Assembly: GCA_037305845.1 (NCBI GenBank) | Contig: CP147778.1 | Location: 416,001 to 480,000 of the forward strand | Source: Candidatus Freyarchaeum deiterrae | Lineage (GTDB): Archaea; Asgardarchaeota; Jordiarchaeia; Jordiarchaeales; Jordiarchaeaceae | Reading direction: 5' to 3' | DNA: 64,000 nucleotides | In this document: positions 2,560 to 51,553 of the stretch, piece by piece | Layout of the letters: each line of letters opens with the position of its first letter | How positions within the stretch are numbered: the first letter of the stretch is position 1 | Program-made: the position numbers and the translations under genes | Notes under the pieces: generated by a model | Told to the model about the DNA's origin: nothing | Database searches by the model: none | What the model saw: only the letters and a program-made list of their open reading frames with translations

Positions 2560-3360
2560 TTATTTTTCGAGGAATTCTATTACTTTTTGGGCGAAGTCTT
2601 CGGCTACTTGGGTGGTCATTCCGTGGCCCACGTCGTCGTACAGGATTAGTTTCGCTTTGGGGATGCGTTTGGCTATTATTTCGTCGTTCTGGTAGGGTAA
2701 GAGTACGTCCTCTTTGCCTGCCATTACTAGGGTTGGTCTGTTGATTTTTGGTAGTCTGTCGTATGTGTCGAACTCCATGCAGGCTTTTAGCTGCCTCATG
2801 TAGGCGTCTTCGGTTATGGGGGCGATGAGCAAGTGGTTTACCTCTCTCTCTATAACCTCTGGATTGTTTGTGACGTAGTCCTTGGGGAAAAGTATATTCA
2901 CTAGTCTTCTGGCCATCTGCTCGTCGGTTCGGTCTCCTCTTTCCATCAATACTGCAATGGTTTCTTGTGGTGTGGGGATCGAGTTGGTTCCTCCGGGGGT
3001 TGTGGAGCAGAGAACTAGTTTTTTGACTCGGTCAGGATAGTTCAGAACGAGCTCTTGAGCTATCATGCCTCCCATGGATACGCCGAGAATATGGGCTTCA
3101 TCTATCTCGAGTGAGTCCATAAGGCCTATCGTGTCATCTGCGAACATTTTTATCGAGTAGTCGCTCTTGGGAGCGTCGGTTCTTCCGGCTCCCCTATTAT
3201 CGAATATCAGGGTTTTGAAGTGTTTGGAAAACTGTTCAATAACTTCTTGTGCCCACCAATCTTTGTTGGCGGTTAATCCCATTATCATCACGAGAGGATA
3301 TCCTTTTCCGTGGATTTCGTAGTACATTTTAATATCGCCGATTCTTATCTTAGGCAACAC
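2560..3360 (-). CDS. Alpha/beta hydrolase (3-oxoadipate enol-lactonase-like)
   Basis: FDNRGAGRT, GVSMGG nucleophile elbow, Asp (GKED), His (VGHG); GAGGTG SD. Confidence 0.9.
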   Translation of the reverse strand: MLPKIRIGDIKMYYEIHGKGYPLVMIMGLTANKDWWAQEVIEQFSKHFKTLIFDNRGAGRTDAPKSDYSIKMFADDTIGLMDSLEIDEAHILGVSMGGMIAQELVLNYPDRVKKLVLCSTTPGGTNSIPTPQETIAVLMERGDRTDEQMARRLVNILFPKDYVTNNPEVIEREVNHLLIAPITEDAYMRQLKACMEFDTYDRLPKINRPTLVMAGKEDVLLPYQNDEIIAKRIPKAKLILYDDVGHGMTTQVAEDFAQKVIEFLEK

Positions 3361-42279: not shown

Positions 42280-43921
42280 GCCTAGAGGTTTAGACAACGC
42301 CCCTCTTATGGAATTGCTTGGCATCACTCCTCCCTCATAAATTCTACTCCCTATTATATTTTTGCGCTCTCTACTCTACCATCACGCGTGATAGATAGAT
42401 GGACGGATGGACACGCTGGGCATCAACTTCGAAGGGAAAAAAAGGAGTAGAAGCAATTCATCAACTTCCCCGAAAGGGAACCCACTCTCCTTTCTCTTTG
42501 GTACTTTTAAAAGAATGATTTATCCCAATAATGCTTAAAAAAGCTGATCTTTCTACAAAAGAGTTGATGACAACCACCAAGAAGAAGAAAAAAAGACAGG
42601 GGTGCATAAGTGGTGCTAGAAACAATTATGGTGACTACTGCTACCAGAACGGAGCAGATCCACCTCCAGCCAAACAGCAGAAATAGCATCAACAACAAAA
42701 ACCTGAGCAGGTTGTGCCACTACTCAAAGAACCTCTATAACCAAGCAAACTACATAGTAAGGCAAAACCTTCTCCAAACCGGAAAATGGACGAGATACGA
42801 GGAGCTCGCGGGGGCGCTCAAGAACGCAGAGAACTACAAGGCCCTCCCCGCGCAAACCGCACAGCAGACCCTGAAAACACTGGATAGAAGCTGGAAATCG
42901 TTCTTCAGAGCAACTCAGGAGTGGAAGAAGAACCCGGACAAGTTCCTCGGCAGACCCAAAATGCCCGGCTACAAAGAGAAGAACGGAGAACACCTACTAA
43001 TCTTCACAAACCAGCAGTGCCGAATAATGAGAGACGGAGAAATAAAATTCCCAAAAAAAGTAGACTTGAAGGTTAAGACACGGTTGGAAGACGAAACCCG
43101 CCTCCGGGAGATCCGAATAGTGCCCGAGGGCGGGGGATACGTCCTAGAGGTAGTTTACCACAGGAGGAGGAGGGCTGTGGAGAAGGAACCGCGAAAACTG
43201 CCCCGGGGTAGAGTGATGGGCGTGGATTTGGGGCTGAGGAACACCGTAACCATCGTAAACAACATTGGTGAGAAGCCGATTGCTGTTAAGGGCGGTGTAC
43301 TAAAGTCCATAAACCAATACTACAACCGGGAAAAGGCGCGGTTGCAGAGCGTCTACGACTGTCAGGGACTTAAGACTACTGGTTCCAAGCTTCTGAAGCT
43401 GACCGGGAAGAGGAATCGGAAAATACATGACTTCTTTCATAAGCTGAGCCGTGGAATCGTGGAGTGGTGCGTCAGAAATGATATAGGTACCATAGTGGTA
43501 GGTTATAATGATAATGGTAGCGGTGGTGGCTGGAAGCAGAGTCCGTGTCTTGGGCGGCGTAACAATCAGAACTTCGTTCAGATACCCTTCCAGAGGCTGC
43601 TGCAGCAGGTCTGCTACAAGGCTGAGGAAGCGGGGATAACCGTGGTGGTACGGGAGGAGAGTTACACCTCGAAGTGCAGTTTCTTGGACAATGAACCTCT
43701 GGGTCATTGTGATGAGTACGCTGGTAGGAGAATAAGCCGGGGCTTGTTCCGGTCGAATAAAGGAGTGGTGATCAACGCGGACGTGAACGCCGCCTACAAC
43801 ATTATAAGGAAGGCATTCCCGGAAGCTTTCACTGCGGACGGGATAGAGGGTGTTGGGCTTCACCCGGTTAGAATGAATCTAAACGCGTTCTAGCAAAGGG
43901 GCTCTTTGAGGAAAGAGCAAC
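42280..43921 (+). mobile_element. Solo-tnpB (IS1341-like) element, no tnpA; left boundary uncertain
   Basis: tnpB with hairpin-rich flanks between pirin and trpA; no transposase in the window. Confidence 0.55.
42610..43893 (+). CDS. tnpB: RNA-guided endonuclease TnpB (IS200/IS605 family)
   Basis: SKNLYNQANY, AQQTL..WKSFF..P..PGYK, GVDLG (RuvC-I), HKLSR, EESYTSK, NADVNAAYNI (RuvC-III). Confidence 0.95.
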   Translation: MVLETIMVTTATRTEQIHLQPNSRNSINNKNLSRLCHYSKNLYNQANYIVRQNLLQTGKWTRYEELAGALKNAENYKALPAQTAQQTLKTLDRSWKSFFRATQEWKKNPDKFLGRPKMPGYKEKNGEHLLIFTNQQCRIMRDGEIKFPKKVDLKVKTRLEDETRLREIRIVPEGGGYVLEVVYHRRRRAVEKEPRKLPRGRVMGVDLGLRNTVTIVNNIGEKPIAVKGGVLKSINQYYNREKARLQSVYDCQGLKTTGSKLLKLTGKRNRKIHDFFHKLSRGIVEWCVRNDIGTIVVGYNDNGSGGGWKQSPCLGRRNNQNFVQIPFQRLLQQVCYKAEEAGITVVVREESYTSKCSFLDNEPLGHCDEYAGRRISRGLFRSNKGVVINADVNAAYNIIRKAFPEAFTADGIEGVGLHPVRMNLNAF

Positions 43922-43947: not shown

Positions 43948-44784
43948 TTAGGTATGTGGTTTTTTTATGGTTGCTTTTTTTAGTTGGCTGGCGTAGTCTT
44001 TGAGTGTTTCTAGCATTTCTTCTACTTCTTCTTCGTCGTTGTTGTTGTATTTTTTTTCTATGATTTTTATGAATTCGCTTCCCACTATGGCGGCTTCTGC
44101 TCCGTTTTGTATAATGGTTTTCACATGGTCAGGCTTTGAGATTCCGAAACCTACGGCTAAGGGGATTTTTTGCTTTGTGATTTGAAGTGTTTTTCTAATC
44201 AGTTTTATGGTGTAGTCTTGAATATTGTCTCTGGCTCCTGTTACTCCGTAAACTGAGACGAGGTAGAGGAAGCCTGATGTGTTTTCCACTATTTTTCTTA
44301 GGCGTTCCGTTGGGGTTGATGGGGCTGCTAGGAATATTGTATCCACTCCGTGTATTTCTGCGATCTTCTTGTACTCGGCGGCTTCTTCTATGGGGAGGTC
44401 TGGGACGATTACTCCGTCGACTCCTGCTGCCTTGGCGGATTCGAAGAAGTTTTTTGTTCCCATTCTGAAAATTGGGTTATAATAGGTCATTATTACGAGT
44501 GGTGTTTTGTTTTTTTCTTTGATTTCTTCGATTATTTTGAGCACCCCTTTTGGTGTTGTTCCTGCTTTCAATGCTTTGGTGGCTGCGGTTTGGATGGTTG
44601 GTCCATCGGCTATGGGGTCGGAGAATGGAATTCCCAGTTCCATGATGTCTGCTCCCCCTTCAACTAGAGTGTCTACTATTTGGGGTGTCAGTGCCGGTTC
44701 GGGATAGCCAGCGGTGACGTAAGCGATTAAGCCGCCTTCGTCTTGGGTTCTGAGTTTTGAGAATGTTTTTTCTATATCTCTCAT
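43948..44784 (-). CDS. trpA: Tryptophan synthase alpha
   Basis: [41 protein letters not shown]. Confidence 0.97.
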
Positions 44785-45977
44785 ATTTTCTCACCTAGAT
44801 ATTTGGCTACCACTTCAGTGTCTTTGTCTCCTCTCCCAGATATGGTTACCACGATTATCTTGTCTTTGGTTAAGGTTGGGGCTAGCTTTATGGCGAATGC
44901 TAACGCGTGGGATGGCTCCAATGCTGGAATTATTCCCTCTTTTTGGGATAGTTCGAGGAAAGCATTTACTGCTTCTTTATCTGTTGCGGCGGCGTATTGG
45001 GCTCTACCTATGCTTTTGAGGAAGGAGTGTTCGGGTCCGACTCCTGGGTAGTCTAGTCCTGCTGAGATGCTGTTAGTGTCCAGTATCTGGCCGTTTTCGT
45101 CTTGGAGAATGTATGTTAGCATTCCGTGGAATACGCCTTCGGCTCCTCCGATTAGTGAGGCGGCGTGTTTTCCGGTGTCTATTCCTTGTCCTGCAGCTTC
45201 AACGCCGTATAGCTCAACTTCTTCGTCGTCTAGGAAGGGATGGAATGTTCCTATGGCGTTGCTTCCTCCGCCTACGCATGCGATGAGGGCGTCGGGAAGT
45301 CTTTCTTCCTTTTGTAGTATTTGCTGCTTTAACTCGTTTCCAATGACGCTCTGGAAGTCTCTGACCATCATGGGGTAGGGGTGTGGTCCTACCACGGAGC
45401 CTATGAGGTAGTATGTGTCTTGGACGTTTGCTACCCAGTCTCTTAGGGCTTCGTTTATGGAGTCTTTCAGGGTTTTTGTTCCGGATTCTACTTGGTGGAC
45501 TTGGGCTCCGAGTAGTTTCATTCTGAAGACGTTGAGCTTTTGCCGTTCTATGTCTTCGGCTCCCATGTAGACCTCGGCTTTCAATCCCAATACTGCGCAG
45601 GATATGGCGGTGGCGACTCCGTGTTGCCCTGCACCGGTTTCTGCTATGATTCTTGTCTTTCCCATTCTTTTTGCGAGCAGGGCTTGCCCCAACGTGTTAT
45701 TTATCTTGTGGGCTCCTCCGTGGGCTAGGTCCTCCCGTTTGAGGTAGATTTTTGCTCCGCCGAGTTTCTTGGTCAAGTTTTCCGCGTAGTACAGGGGGGT
45801 GGGTCTTCCGGCGTACTCTGAAAGGTAATAGTTCAATTGTTTTTGGAATTCTGGATCCTTTTTTGCTTCTTCGTATGCTTTCTCAAGTTCTTTAACTGCG
45901 GTCATTAGGGTTTCTGGGATGAACTGCCCGCCGTGTTTCCCGTATTTACCATTTATGGGGTATTTCTTCAATTCCAT
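44781..45977 (-). CDS. trpB: Tryptophan synthase beta (TrpB1)
   Basis: [47 protein letters not shown]. Confidence 0.98.
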
Positions 45978-46624
45978 TGCATCTCAACTTCCTTAGCGTT
46001 TTTTATGAATTCGGATACTTTTTTGGGGTCTTTTACTCCTGGTTTTGCCTCAACACCGCTGGAGACGTCGACGGCGTAGGGTTTAACCAGTTGTATGGCT
46101 TCCTTCACATTTTCTGGCTTTAATCCTCCGGCTAGGATTAGCGGTTTGGGGTATATGGCTTCCCTAACAAGTTTGCTGAGTTTCCAGTCATGAGTTATTC
46201 CTGTGCCTCCATACTTTCCTGAGACAAGAGAGTCTAGGAGTATCGCGTCCAGTATGTTTGCGGCTTCCTTGGCAGTGTTGGCTGCTTGAGGTTCAGCTTG
46301 GATTGCCCCTATCAGGTGAATGTAAGGTAAGCTTTTTCGTATCTCTTTGTATCTTTGGTTCAAGCCGTGGATTTGAATGGTGCTGGGATTCAATTCTTTG
46401 TGAATCTTCTCTAGATGACCAAGGTCTTTGGGGACTGTAACTACGACTGTTTCCACGAATATCGGAGCGGATTTTATTATTTCCTTGGCTTTGTTTATGG
46501 AGAGGTTTCTTGGAGATTGGGGTACATCTACGACAAAACCTACTGCGTCTGCTCCAGCGTCCACGGCTATTTGGAGATCTTTGGTGGAGGTTATTCCGCA
46601 TATCTTAACACGAACCCGACTCAC
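45968..46624 (-). CDS. trpF: Phosphoribosylanthranilate isomerase
   Basis: [30 protein letters not shown]; GTG start overlaps the trpC stop. Confidence 0.95.
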
Positions 46625-47403
46625 AGCGATTCCACCAACTCTTTCACTTTTTCCTCTATGTTGCCGGCCTTCATGATAGCAGTTCCTACGAGGAATGCTT
46701 GGGCTCCGCAATTTCGGAGGAAGCGTATGTCTTGCGAAGTGTTTATGCCACTTTCGCTCACAATCACTCTTCCTTCGGTACCGTGTTTGGTTAAGATGTG
46801 CTTTGTGACTTCTAGATTTACTTTGAGCGTTTTTAGGTCACGGTTGTTTATGCCGATCATGTCGGAGTCGGTCTTGAGTGCGTTGAGAAACTCGTTTTCA
46901 GTGTGTACCTCTAAGAGTGTTTCTAGGCCTTTGGAATGGGTGTGTTCAATCATGCTCTGAACATTCTCTTCGCAGTAACCTCTATCAAAGAGTGCCTGTA
47001 TTAGTAGAATTGTGTTTGCGCCATTTCTTGAGGCGAATTCAATTTGTTCCAGACTTAAGATAAAGTCCTTCATTAGTATTGGTACATCCACTTGGTCTCG
47101 TACTTGGGTTATGAACTTGACGTTGCCTTTGAAGTGTTTTGGTTCTGTTAGAATTGATATGCCGACACTGCCTCCCTTCTCCATATCCTTAGCAATCTTT
47201 CCCAAGTCGCTATTCTCCCTTATGGTGCCTTTGGAAGGCGATGCGAACTTGATCTCGGATATGATTGGATTTCCCTTACCGCTCGTAATAATAGCTTCTT
47301 TCAAGCTTTTGGGAGTAGCTGCTACCTTTGCGGTAGTTTCGTAGTATCCTTCTTTTATCGACCTCATTGCGTCTTTAGCTAGTACGTCAATGTAATCAGG
47401 CAT
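46621..47403 (-). CDS. trpC: Indole-3-glycerol phosphate synthase
   Basis: EIKFASPSKG, SILTEP, LMKDF, GINNRDL, VSESGI. Confidence 0.96.
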   Translation of the reverse strand: MPDYIDVLAKDAMRSIKEGYYETTAKVAATPKSLKEAIITSGKGNPIISEIKFASPSKGTIRENSDLGKIAKDMEKGGSVGISILTEPKHFKGNVKFITQVRDQVDVPILMKDFILSLEQIEFASRNGANTILLIQALFDRGYCEENVQSMIEHTHSKGLETLLEVHTENEFLNALKTDSDMIGINNRDLKTLKVNLEVTKHILTKHGTEGRVIVSESGINTSQDIRFLRNCGAQAFLVGTAIMKAGNIEEKVKELVESL

Positions 47404-48454
47404 ACTTCCTTTCATACTCCTCAAGCTTCGATAGCTGCCCGCCGGAAGCTTTGACCATCATCTTTAATTTTTCATATGCGGCTCCGCTTTCGATGGAGTC
47501 AGACGCCAGTTCAATTCCTTCCGATAAATCTCCGGCTTTACCGCCGACAAGTATTCCAGCCGCTGAGTTAAGCAGAACTATGTCTCTTTTCGGGTCTTGC
47601 TTAGAGATGTTGTTTAATAGTTTGAACGTGAGTTCAGCGCTCTCTTCTGGTGTAGTTCCACATATCTCCTGTGGCTTAGCTATTTTGAAACCATAGTCTT
47701 TAGGGGTTATCTCTTTGAGGGATACTTCTCCGTCTCTGAGTTGGGCTATTGATGTTTTGCCAATTATTGAGATTTCATCCAATCCGTCCAAGCCGTGAAC
47801 CACCATGGCTTCTTCACAGCCTAGTTCCCCTAAAACGTGGGCTAGTGGTTCCACTAGTTCTTTACTATAAACGCCGAGTAATTGGGCGTTAGCACCTGCT
47901 GGATTTGTTAATGGTCCGAGAATGTTGAAGACGGTTCGGATTCCTATTTCCCTCCGAGGGCCAATAGCATGTTTCATTGCAGGGTGGAAGTTTGGAGCGA
48001 ACATGAATCCTATTCCCACATTCTCGATAATTTTTTCAACAGCTTTCGGTTCCAAATTGAGGTTGTAGCCGAGTTGCTCTAGCACGTCGCTGCTGCCGCT
48101 TTTACTGGTAACTGATCGATTGCCGTGCTTAGCTACGGCGACTCCTGCGCCTGCAACTATGAAGGCTGCTGCGGTGCTTACGTTAAAGGTTTTCATCTTG
48201 TCTCCTCCGGTTCCACAGGTATCTACTAGTCGACCGCTAACTTTTGGATGAATTTTATAGCAAAACTCTCTCATCACGGATGCGAAAGCTGATATTTCCT
48301 GTACAGTTTCCCCCTTCATTCTCAGAGCAGTTAGGAATGCTCCGATCTGAGCCTGTGTGGCAGCGCCTGACATTATCTCCTTCATTGTGTCCCTAGCTTC
48401 TTGTTGTTCCAAGTCTTTTCCTTCAACTATTTTTTGTATGTTTTCCTTTATCAT
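47396..48454 (-). CDS. trpD: Anthranilate phosphoribosyltransferase
   Basis: DTCGTGGD, FNVST, KHGNRSVTSKSGSSD, RTVFNILGPLTNP, GLDEIS. Confidence 0.97.
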   Translation of the reverse strand: MIKENIQKIVEGKDLEQQEARDTMKEIMSGAATQAQIGAFLTALRMKGETVQEISAFASVMREFCYKIHPKVSGRLVDTCGTGGDKMKTFNVSTAAAFIVAGAGVAVAKHGNRSVTSKSGSSDVLEQLGYNLNLEPKAVEKIIENVGIGFMFAPNFHPAMKHAIGPRREIGIRTVFNILGPLTNPAGANAQLLGVYSKELVEPLAHVLGELGCEEAMVVHGLDGLDEISIIGKTSIAQLRDGEVSLKEITPKDYGFKIAKPQEICGTTPEESAELTFKLLNNISKQDPKRDIVLLNSAAGILVGGKAGDLSEGIELASDSIESGAAYEKLKMMVKASGGQLSKLEEYERKYA

Positions 48455-48458
48455 GCTA

Positions 48459-49040
48459 TCACTCGCCCGCAAGAAAGTTTTTTATCAGTCTATTTCCGTT
48501 TATCGTGAGTATGGATTCGGGGTGAAATTGAACTCCTTCAATCGGATATTCTAAATGCCGGACTCCCATGATTTCTCCACCATCTATTGCCTCGGCTGTA
48601 ATTTCCAAGCATGACGGTGTAGTTTCCCTATCGCCAACTAGGGAGTGGTAACGAGTAGCCTCAAAGGGATTCTTCATTCCCTTAAAGACTCCTTTGCCAT
48701 CATGTTTTATGAGGCTCGTTTTTCCATGCTTCAAATTACTCGCGCGGATAATCTTCCCACCAAAAGTGGAGAAGATTCCCTGGTGCCCTAGACACACGCC
48801 CAGTGTGGGAATTTTACAACTCATTTTTCGCAAAATTTCGGAGCATACACCGAAGTATCGCACATCTTCCGGCGTGCCGGGACCAGGAGAAATTATTATT
48901 CTATCCGGGCGGAGTTTGGTTGCTTTCTTCAAGGTTATTTCGTCATTTCTATAGACTAGGGGTTCTGCCCCAAGTTCTCCTACGTACTGCACAAGATTGT
49001 AGACGAAGGAGTCATAATTATCGATAATAAGAACTTTCAT
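48459..49040 (-). CDS. trpG: Anthranilate synthase component II
   Basis: IDNYDSF, SPGPG, GVCLGHQ, RYHSL, QFHPES. Confidence 0.97.
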   Translation of the reverse strand: MKVLIIDNYDSFVYNLVQYVGELGAEPLVYRNDEITLKKATKLRPDRIIISPGPGTPEDVRYFGVCSEILRKMSCKIPTLGVCLGHQGIFSTFGGKIIRASNLKHGKTSLIKHDGKGVFKGMKNPFEATRYHSLVGDRETTPSCLEITAEAIDGGEIMGVRHLEYPIEGVQFHPESILTINGNRLIKNFLAGE

Positions 49041-50437
49041 AATTTGACCTCCGATAATTCTAAAGCCTTCTGCAAGGCTCCAAGTTTATGTTCAGTTTCG
49101 AACCATTCCGTTTCAGGCACCGAGTCGGCTACTATTCCCGCTCCAGCTTGTATGAAGCATCTATGCTTATCCGCTACCAGTGTTCGTATTGTAATAGCGA
49201 AGTCCATATTGCCATTATAAGAGAAGTAGCCGAGAGCTCCCGCGTATGGGCCTCTCCTCGTGGGTTCAAGTTCCTCAATTATTTCCATCGCTCTTACTTT
49301 GGGGGCTCCAGAAACTGTTCCCGCTGGAAAAACCGCTCTCATGGCATCGTAGCAGTTACGGTCATCTCTTAGCTTGCCCACTACTCTAGAAACTATGTGC
49401 TGAACATGGCTGTACTCATGTACCTCCATGAATTCTGGAACGTGGACACTTCCGAAACTCGAAACCTTACCCAAGTCGTTCCTAGCCAAGTCTACTAGCA
49501 TCACATGTTCGGCGCATTCCTTCTCGTCAGATAAGAGATCTTTTGCTAAAGCCCTATTTTTAGCGGGGTCTTCCACTCTGGGTCTGGTGCCAGCTATAGG
49601 GAAGGTCTCCACCGCGTTTCCATCAACTCTCACAAGCATCTCGGGACTGGATCCTATGATTTTCCGTTCTCCCATTTTTAAGAAATACATGTATGGAGAA
49701 GGATTGATCTCTCGTAATGCCAAGTAGAATCTAGTCAGATCTCCTTTGAACTTGAACTCCTTCCTCTTCGAAGGAACGACCTGAAAAATATCGCCTGACG
49801 CTATGTATTTTTTGGCGTTCTTAACTGATTCTTCGTACTGTTCTTTTGTGACGTTAAACTTGGGACTGGTAAAGGATAAACTTCCAGGGTTGTAGGGCTC
49901 CTTTGCTAATTCTAATAATTCGTCTGAGTGGTCTTCATCCCTGTAATAGTAGAGGGTCTCTCCTCGGATGTGGTCGAATACGACGCCATCATCATAAATG
50001 CCCATCTGAATATCTGGAAATTCCAGGTCGTCTACAGCTCGGTTGGGAAGCTTTTCAAAGTAACGTATTGCGTCATAGGAGATGTATCCCACGGCGCCGC
50101 CTTCCAACCTGAATCTTTTTTGGTTGGATTTTGTTCCAAGTACCTCTTCTAATACCTTGAGGGGATCGTTGGCTTTGGTTATATTCTTCTCCCCAGATTC
50201 CATATCTTGTAGTGTTACCTCGCCGTCTTTCGCCGTTACCAACATTTTCGGCATGAATCCGATGAACGAATATTGGGCCAGCTTTTTCGGCCCCTCCATG
50301 GATTCGAGGAGGTATGCGTGCTCGTATTTTTCTTGTATTTTCAAAAAGAGTTCGGTTGGTGAGAACGAAGTTGGAAACTTTTTAATATTCAACCGAGAGA
50401 TAGGCTTGCTTTCGCTCTTCTTGATGTACTGCTGCAA
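49037..50437 (-). CDS. trpE: Anthranilate synthase component I (true start unclear, see findings)
   Basis: LLES Trp-feedback motif, [36 protein letters not shown]. Confidence 0.96.
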
Positions 50438-50462
50438 TTTGTAGCCAAAGATGATTCCTCAC
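50382..50462 (-). CDS. Putative trpE leader ORF (26 aa, single Trp codon), out of frame with trpE
   Basis: GGAGG at 50470-50474, 7-nt spacer, GTG AGG AAT CAT CTT TGG CTA.. = [26 protein letters not shown]. Confidence 0.5.
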   Translation of the reverse strand: MRNHLWLQIAAVHQEERKQAYLSVEY

Positions 50463-50512
50463 TGTAAAGCCTCCTATAATAAAGCCTAATTATAAGAATT
50501 TATACCCATGTG

Positions 50513-50546
50513 TTATATTTAAAACTTATGTGTACAAAAATATACA
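50513..50546 (-). promoter_or_regulatory. trp promoter TATA with adjacent TRP-box-like pair
   Basis: TTTAAATA at 50516-50523; TGTACA-AAAA-TATACA at 50531-50546. Confidence 0.55.
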
Positions 50547-50674: not shown

Positions 50675-51553
50675 GTGAATTTTATGAACCAAAAAATAAA
50701 TGATTCGGATACTAAAAACCCGAGTTTGGATGCAGAAATTAACGCTGTAATTGATGTGGAGCAGTTACAGGTATTGACGAACAAGCATCTGGAGGAAATG
50801 GTGAACAAGGTTTCAGCCATGTTTCCCATGCGGGGCCTCAGTGAGTTCCTCAGGTTTCAAAGCAACGAGTTTGCCTCAAATCTTTTTCAGGCCATCCTAA
50901 CTGTGTTGGAGAAAAAAGGGGAGAAAACAGGTGGAGGAAAGGAAGGAAACAATCGGGTATATCAAGAACTCAAAAAACAATTGAAACACACTTTGAGTAA
51001 AATTATAGAGAATATTGAAAAGTGGGGAACTCCCCTCGGGGAGAGAGATTCCGAAGAAGAAACAAGCGTAGAGAACGCAGTGCCCGTGAGTCCAAAAGTG
51101 ATGAGTAAGGCAGTTTTTGGCGGAGTAAAGGTGGAACAGGAACAATCTTTACCCGAATTGAAGGAAGAGAAGAAAGAGAAACTGAGTGATAATGAAGATC
51201 AGAAATTGATTAGATTTCTGGGAGAGCAGAGAGAAAAGTATAATCCCTTTATCTATGCTTCTGGAGAGGAGGAAATAGTTCATCTCCGTGGACAGGTTGA
51301 AGGCTTGACACGAATTATAGACCGTGTTAAACCCCTTGTAGAAACAGATCCGAGGTACAAGACTATCGTTTTCATCGGAAACCGGGGAGGAACTACTGCC
51401 GAGGAGCTGGGTGATTACCTAGGTCTAACTGAGGGGAAGCGGAAAAGTCTCGTCAAGGAGCTCAAGAACCTTGAAATGATAGATGTTAACGAAAACGGTA
51501 TGATTGTTTTAAAACCCATAAAGACTGAGGAAGAGAAAAAGAAAGAGTTATAA
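50675..51553 (+). CDS. Hypothetical protein with coiled coil and C-terminal winged-helix
   Basis: Long ORF; DPRYKTI..GGTTAEELGDYLGL..LVKELKNLEMID has wHTH spacing. Confidence 0.7.
   Translation: MNFMNQKINDSDTKNPSLDAEINAVIDVEQLQVLTNKHLEEMVNKVSAMFPMRGLSEFLRFQSNEFASNLFQAILTVLEKKGEKTGGGKEGNNRVYQELKKQLKHTLSKIIENIEKWGTPLGERDSEEETSVENAVPVSPKVMSKAVFGGVKVEQEQSLPELKEEKKEKLSDNEDQKLIRFLGEQREKYNPFIYASGEEEIVHLRGQVEGLTRIIDRVKPLVETDPRYKTIVFIGNRGGTTAEELGDYLGLTEGKRKSLVKELKNLEMIDVNENGMIVLKPIKTEEEKKKEL

Follow-up and report, generated by a model that had tools for sequence, protein, structure and literature searches.

A candidate tryptophan-sensing +1 ribosomal frameshift site ahead of trpE, conserved among archaea

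How do ribosomes enter trpE when the only start codon with a well-spaced Shine-Dalgarno (SD) sequence lies in another reading frame? The question arises from the trp operon in a stretch of 64,000 nucleotides (the window, in whose numbering the features below are given) of a host genome that consists of one contig of 3,576,204 bases. A preliminary description had noted an SD-led GTG out of the trpE frame, a 26-codon leader with Trp at codon 6 and an open +1 frame, and we confirmed all of these on the sequence. The features of the locus are as follows.

50470..50474, minus strand: initiation SD GGAGG, 7 nt upstream of GTG 50462
50382..50462, minus strand: zero-frame leader ORF of 26 codons (MRNHLW...), with codons 1-6 as its sole conserved part
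50452..50460, minus strand: internal element over codons 1-4, SD-like (GAGG-A-ATC), with a GAGG core that ends 6 nt 5' of the P-site codon
50444..50450, minus strand: predicted +1 shift site CTT-TGG-C (consensus NTT-TGG-C), with GGC as the +1 codon
49037..50449, minus strand: anthranilate synthase component I gene trpE, read in +1 from the TTT, scoring above the TIGR01820 cut-off; predicted N-terminal junction MRNHL-GYK
48459..49040, minus strand: trpG, ATGA overlap with the trpE stop
47396..48472, minus strand: trpD, likely ATG at 48454, 4 nt past the trpG stop
46621..47424, minus strand: trpC
45968..46711, minus strand: trpF, real start probably downstream of the longest-ORF start
44781..45977, minus strand: trpB
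43948..44784, minus strand: trpA, ATGA overlap with trpB

The leader reads GTG AGG AAT CAT CTT TGG CTA and onward to a TAA stop at 50384-50382, with codon 6 as its single Trp. Moving by +1 from the CTT (50450-50448) to the TTT (50449-50447) gives TTT GGC TAC AAA TTG, a frame that stays stop-free on the minus strand as far as 49037. Upstream, the trpE frame is shut by a TGA (50461-50459) that overlaps the GTG three codons 5' of the TTT, and beyond this TGA it reads TAG GAG GCT TTA CAG, with no start codon. A GAGGA ends 5 nt 5' of the leader CTT, and the spacing between GGAGG and start codons peaks genome-wide at 7-9 nt. The exact motif precedes a long ORF just once in the 3.58-Mb host genome. 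UGG is not rare there (11.3 per 1000), so slowness at this codon would need a shortage of Trp. The genes trpG-D-C-F-B-A follow trpE with overlapping or 4-nt junctions, in agreement with the tight spacing described initially. The nearest named TrpE relative is that of Ca. Jordarchaeum madagascariense (79%, same genus). Two neighbours lie on the plus strand: a gene of 292 aa divergent from trpE (50675-51553), which has no Pfam or NCBIfam match and is not among the conserved upstream neighbours of trpE, and an ORF convergent with trpA (42610-43893) that by eye resembles TnpB (IS200/IS605).

We propose the following mechanism for this arrangement. Ribosomes would begin translation in the leader frame, at the SD-led GTG, as the conservation of SD, start and spacing suggests. 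After five codons, the peptidyl-tRNA would sit on NUU (CUU here) with UGG in the A-site. The 16S 3' end could by then re-pair with the internal RGG-N-AUC; this pairing was computed, and analogy with prfB suggests a stimulatory role. When charged tRNA-Trp is plentiful, UGG would be read and the leader would end after 26 codons, with little TrpE made. When it is scarce, the A-site would stay empty and the P-site tRNA would slip to UUU, a move that keeps the position 2 and 3 pairs, so that GGC would be read and TrpE made. Overlapping stops and starts may relay the effect to trpG-A. More TrpE at low Trp is the right sign for a biosynthetic operon. Judging from comparative sequence evidence, we consider it likely that the trpE site is a hungry-codon +1 programmed frameshift sensing Trp-tRNA. 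The comparisons thus support the Trp-sensing +1 shift proposed in the preliminary description, and it is from them that we infer both the shift and the Trp response.

To compare the site among relatives, trpE loci were gathered from related genomes, GTDB contigs and metagenomes. A first filter, which asked for a start codon exactly 13 nt 5' of an in-frame TTT GG and is partly circular, gave 135 distinct 5' regions. A second filter used the 5' half alone (start plus RGG) to break this circularity. It found 134 matches in the +1-requiring frame, with TTTGG in 134/134, and 17 other matches that were scattered; no TTC-GG variant was found among the trpE loci that it matched. The consensus of these 134 distinct loci is SD - RTG RGG N(A/G)T NNN NTT TGG, followed mostly by C. 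They range over Jordarchaeia, another Asgard family, Bathyarchaeia and a Hadarchaeota bin, and at 80% identity their TrpE proteins fall into 60 clusters, with identity as low as 55%, although the loci share kinship and the counts are not independent. The arrangement has a wide distribution both in Asgard lineages and in the Bathyarchaeia, which are abundant in sediments.

The relatives, aligned in line with the preliminary description, conserve the SD-start, the Trp codon and the +1 offset, TGG being leader codon 6 in every locus. The site had been described as CUU-UGG. CTT-TGG is indeed present here, but CUU is not specific: the P-site codon 5 is GTT in 88, CTT in 38, ATT in 5 and TTT in 4 of the 135 regions, and the site is better written as N-UUU-GG, mostly with GTT. 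Every locus has either AGG (Arg) or GGG (Gly) as codon 2, and the SD-like internal element is the conserved part of the site. Leaders in relatives run to 7-32 codons with scattered stops. This freedom of length after the Trp codon indicates that the product is not the leader peptide as such. The linker from the TTT to the protein fold is hypervariable (18-30 codons), yet the +1 frame is open in 134/134 loci, whereas the other frames are closed in 126 and 129.

Constraint at the site acts on nucleotides. TTT is found in 130/130 full-length trpE genes, whereas nine other near-invariant Phe columns each mix TTT and TTC. GGC is the +1 codon in 105/130, against 36% in Gly usage, with some TrpE Gly columns biased alike; within the +1 reading it is rare at the first Gly (4/135) and dominant at the second (107/135). 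Pairing of the leaders with the host 16S 3' end (mean of 134 loci) gives an initiation peak of -7.0 kcal/mol at -16/-15 and a second anti-SD peak of -7.5 kcal/mol at +2, over codons 1-4. The internal SD is about 5 nt nearer to codon 5 than the initiation SD is to codon 1 in these 134 loci. As to 16S rRNA itself, one of the sequences gathered (L022) carries a single 16S gene with two intron-like insertions (~1770-1860 and 3070-3100), one of them just before the anti-SD end.

An ordinary start further inside trpE was considered as well. The preliminary description had noted that TTG 50437 lacks a properly spaced SD. It is excluded because it is not conserved, being replaced by TCG, CCA or CCG within the genus, but its codon type is no argument: TTG is frequent in the host genome, with 113 of 281 GGAGG-led starts. 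In 45/135 loci, the first in-frame ATG, GTG or TTG lies past the start of the conserved fold, and some loci have none for >100 codons. An in-frame ATG or GTG directly 5' of the TTT, present in 46/135, is a possible bypass. As for RNA structure, the leader region has no Rfam match, and folding gave z ~0 both at the locus and as a mean over the 134 loci; the attenuator hairpin whose absence had been noted earlier was thus found by neither approach.

Next, we scanned the host genome for SD-led, out-of-frame starts ahead of long ORFs without a start of their own. This gave 31 candidates, 3 of which head amino-acid pathways, namely trpE, the his operon and leuA, all with AGG - 6 nt - NTT. The first gene of the his operon, hisZ/hisS-like (C1:1344287, minus strand; L184:10288; L185), has ATG AGA AGG GAC TCA GTT CAT, in which a His codon occupies the Trp position. 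Among its relatives (L186, L228, L293, L296, L297), the cassette persists as TTT CAT in J. madagascariense and, among Bathyarchaeia, as GTT CAT in two and ATT CAC in a third; one more Bathyarchaeia locus shows ATT CAT but no clear start. In the host genus, four genomes (L187-L190) start the his gene in frame, and there the His codon and the AGG have both been lost. In the zero frame the his sites retain His, as CAT or CAC, while the +1 residue shifts from Ile to Thr. No other evidence argues as strongly as this synonymous change, together with the swap of Trp for His, that ribosomes read the A-site codon in the zero frame and that the identity of its amino acid is important. A cassette with a His codon probably gates the first gene of the his operon. 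Two further hisZ-like loci of Bathyarchaeia (L294, L295) have no ATG, GTG or TTG at the gene start and carry a GGAGG 8 nt 5' of an in-frame ATC, which may be a non-canonical start left behind by a cassette that decayed. Just upstream of the host's his operon lies an ORF (C1:1345027-1346235, plus strand) that looks TnpB-like (IS200/IS605) by eye.

The third site precedes the gene for 2-isopropylmalate synthase (C1:1753156, minus strand; L183; L196-L205), and its out-of-frame start is kept in 10/10 Jordarchaeales copies. The codon after the AGG-spaced triplet is Leu (CTT) in 7 and Arg (CGT) in 3 of them. As the A-site is not consistently Leu, cognate sensing is not universal. In one copy (L205), TAG directly follows the in-frame ATG. 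The Bathyarchaeia leuA homologues examined appear to be in-frame, and a loose SD-start-RGG-NTTY pattern was unspecific over five genomes.

Lineages that have abandoned the out-of-frame start were also compared. In a quick IQ-TREE ML tree, drawn with midpoint rooting, in-frame trpE occurs at seven separate places among shift-type neighbours; a locus ending at its contig end (L108) was excluded from this count. Six of the seven in-frame lineages have lost TTTGG. The leader of L089 is fused in frame with TGG changed to TGC, and L081/L092 have a new in-frame TTG start with TTT changed to AAA/CAA. A relic of the motif survives in the seventh, L056, at an internal in-frame trpE. The operon promoter of L056 carries a complete second copy (L056:4154-4400), which heads a 59-codon +1 frame before trpB2. 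That frame ends ~30 nt 5' of the start of trpB2, a gene with an SD of its own, and the layout suggests a switch that works as a relay.

The bare 18-nt pattern matches frequently by chance in 121 Thermoproteota genomes, of which 50 matches were examined. Ten of the 50 open a +1 frame of >300 codons: nine are trpE and one is trpS, a tryptophan-tRNA ligase gene of Thermoproteota headed by a Trp cassette (L330:485-1577) without an obvious upstream SD. The motif tracks Trp genes and not the protein sequence of TrpE. In the host genome itself, trpS, trpB2 and the arg, aro and ilvB-like genes have ordinary in-frame starts. By eye, its aro cluster (C1:1434048-1446422) contains genes that look like those of the archaeal route through ADH synthase and DHQ synthase II, and no class I DAHP synthase was found in the genome. 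On balance, we favor a portable archaeal cassette, composed of SD, start, internal SD, NUU and one cognate codon, that would be a ribosome-based counterpart of attenuation. Located ahead of amino-acid operons and synthetase genes, it would allow a gene to be expressed only through a +1 slip, at times when charged tRNA for the amino acid in question runs short. Its members would include Trp (trpE, trpS and the trpB2 leader) and His (hisZ/hisS-like) versions, and possibly a branched-chain one (leuA).

Could the conserved pattern be accounted for in other ways? The +1 shift may be real but constitutive, with a fixed low ratio, or may occur elsewhere in codons 1-5, such as just past the start. What is conserved would in that case be a peptide of the +1 frame, G-I-x-F-G, with the Trp codon as a by-product of TTT-GGN. 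The +1 frame does read G-[I/V]-x-F-G with variation at third positions, where G is avoided for Ile/Val (2/135). The site of ICE msi172 reportedly shares the spacing TGG-GGN-NTN-NNN-TTT. The conserved W and G codons before its UUU (PMC5009743) also fit such a shift. However, selection on the protein would permit TTC, which is found in 0/130 against the nine mixed control columns. In addition, GIxFG is absent from TrpE orthologues that start in frame, the linker after the segment is hypervariable, GGC marks the second Gly (107/135) but not the first (4/135), and the his sites hold His in the zero frame as the +1 residue goes from Ile to Thr. We regard a constitutive or displaced shift as unlikely. 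A reading without any frameshift treats the Trp-codon leader as an overlapping uORF, through which occlusion or re-initiation would govern the use of a trpE start in frame. It would suit the 46/135 loci with an in-frame ATG or GTG just 5' of the TTT, TTG 50437 here, and the trpB2 case of L056, where a short frame ends before a gene with its own SD. Yet the in-frame starts are not conserved and are missing before the conserved fold in 45/135 loci, leader stops scatter from codon 8 to 33, and the internal SD lies 4 nt from those ATGs, which is a background spacing in the host genome. Nor would a uORF lead one to expect that the offset stays fixed at +1, that TTT never varies or that the linker is open in +1 in every locus, and control of this kind seems quite improbable.

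Alteration of the mRNA before translation, with loss of 3n+1 bases through a small bulge-helix-bulge (BHB) intron, editing or polymerase slippage, is very improbable. Introns in tRNA genes are very common in the host genome (PMC11291895), but a strict BHB is absent at the trpE locus. A strict BHB that would restore the frame occurs in 16/134 leaders, at no common position, as against 10 and 3 for the control windows; the mean folding z-score is ~0 and the T run is just 3-4 nt. A BHB intron at the trpE site was rejected for want of a conserved, frame-restoring bulge-helix-bulge. We give hardly any credence to an assembly error or pseudogene, or to TGA 50461 being read through as Trp from an upstream in-frame start. 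An assembly error is excluded because the same offset is conserved, with intact TrpE, in 134 distinct loci from public assemblies, and the 1-nt indel that the preliminary description had allowed for fails on the same count; the matching published genome is also long-read validated (PMC11291895). Where the start codon is overlapped in the +1 frame, 64 loci have TGA and 70 have TGG, as read-through might have it, but these triplets are merely the start codon plus the R of the conserved RGG. Read-through was rejected, the upstream frame being without a start. The favored +1 Trp sensor also has points against it. The commonest P-site codon, GUU, keeps only 2/3 pairs on UUU, and CUU_U was by far the best site in RF2 tests (PMC5009743). 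The internal SD core lies 6 nt from the site and not at the bacterial 3 nt, an initiation SD stands close upstream whereas RF2 avoids competitor SDs (PMC5009743), and the in-frame ATG or GTG just 5' of the TTT in 46/135 loci counts against it as well.

The promoter region may hold a second layer of control, with the following elements.

50531..50546, minus strand: operator-like palindrome TGTATA-N4-TGTACA, just upstream of BRE/TATA
50516..50530, minus strand: BRE-like element plus TATA box TTTTAAATA; the start site deduced from it predicts a ~30-nt 5' UTR that holds the SD

A box similar to the palindrome is present in 61/135 motif loci. In the host genome, box and TATA occur together at two places only, before trpE and before trpB2 (C1:2110716). 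The TATA of relatives lies mostly 44-59 nt before the leader start, giving a 5' UTR of ~20-35 nt. No conserved regulator gene adjoining trpE was found, the best case being an Lrp-like gene in 11 loci. We take TGTACA to be the TRP-box (TrpY) consensus. TrpY of Methanothermobacter and Tar (TK0271) of Thermococcus likewise have a palindromic box beside the BRE/TATA of a trp promoter, and the Tar site, TGGACA-N8-TGTCCA, sits upstream of BRE/TATA (PMC6737238). The TGTACA-N4-TGTACA box here is placed in the same way, and it probably adds transcriptional control like that of Tar or TrpY. Both regulators act on transcription and leave the out-of-frame start unexplained.

Trp regulation in archaea has been described only as transcription factors, in two lineages (PMC6737238). 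One chromosomal frameshift, the -1 shift of fucA1, had been characterised in archaea according to a 2021 review (PMC8211752). Shifts induced by starvation were regarded as errors, and according to a 2016 review none is known to yield functional trans-frame proteins specific to starvation (PMC5009743). We found no description of a Trp-sensing +1 shift of this kind in the literature searched, whose coverage leaves out most subscription journals, and within that scope the initial remark that no described trp operon is controlled so holds. If true, the mechanism would provide: 1) a chromosomal +1 frameshift in archaea; 2) a natural use of starvation-driven frameshifting, of which the 2016 review knew no example (PMC5009743); and 3) a cassette of ~35 nt whose sensed amino acid should be switchable via one codon. 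The starts of TrpE and of some HisZ in these genomes are probably mis-annotated.

In the trpL and hisL attenuators, a short leader with cognate codons lets the ribosome read the supply of aminoacyl-tRNA, and low amino acid leads to more enzyme. The trpE site shares with them a short leader with a cognate codon ahead of the first biosynthetic gene, in the form of one Trp at codon 6 in all loci, in place of their run of codons. Unlike theirs, however, its leader runs into the gene in another frame and would supply the N-terminus of the protein, and the site shows no sign of a hairpin or terminator (no Rfam match, z ~0). The large stem I with specifier codon and the antiterminator of a T-box are not found in a 5' UTR of ~20-35 nt that is unstructured and has no Rfam match. 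The ICE msi172-msi171 (FseA) site of Mesorhizobium also shifts +1 at UUU with Trp and Gly codons shortly upstream (PMC5009743). There, TGG-GGN-...-TTT is the zero frame and the shift goes from UUU to UUC, whereas the corresponding series at the trpE site is in the +1 phase, and the likeness is probably convergent.

Closer parallels lie in sites with a slow A-site codon. Shifts of +1 at hungry codons of the Gallant type and at the CUU_AGG_C site of Ty1 and ABP140 are established, and in these, as proposed here, a slow sense codon makes CUU slip by +1, and reading goes on at GGC (PMC5009743). Ty1 differs in relying on a permanently rare tRNA that sets a ratio, whereas the codon at the trpE site matches the end product of the pathway. 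With prfB, the gene of bacterial release factor 2, the trpE site shares a short zero-frame leader that holds the start while the functional protein lies in +1, a P-site tRNA predicted to re-pair onto UUU, a slow A-site as the proposed sensor, a C after the A-site codon (PMC5009743), and an SD-like purine run just upstream, with alternating Gly/Arg codons. The P-site codon able to re-pair is CUU_U here and NUU_U in all 134 loci, mostly GUU_U. In place of a UGA read by the gene's own product stands UGG before trpE, and in place of an internal SD at 3 nt stands a conserved SD-like core at 6 nt. The trpE site would thus sense charged tRNA-Trp and not release factor; it would shift after 5 codons only, in an archaeon, and gate a biosynthetic operon. 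As proposed, it works like prfB or Ty1 and is a member of neither.
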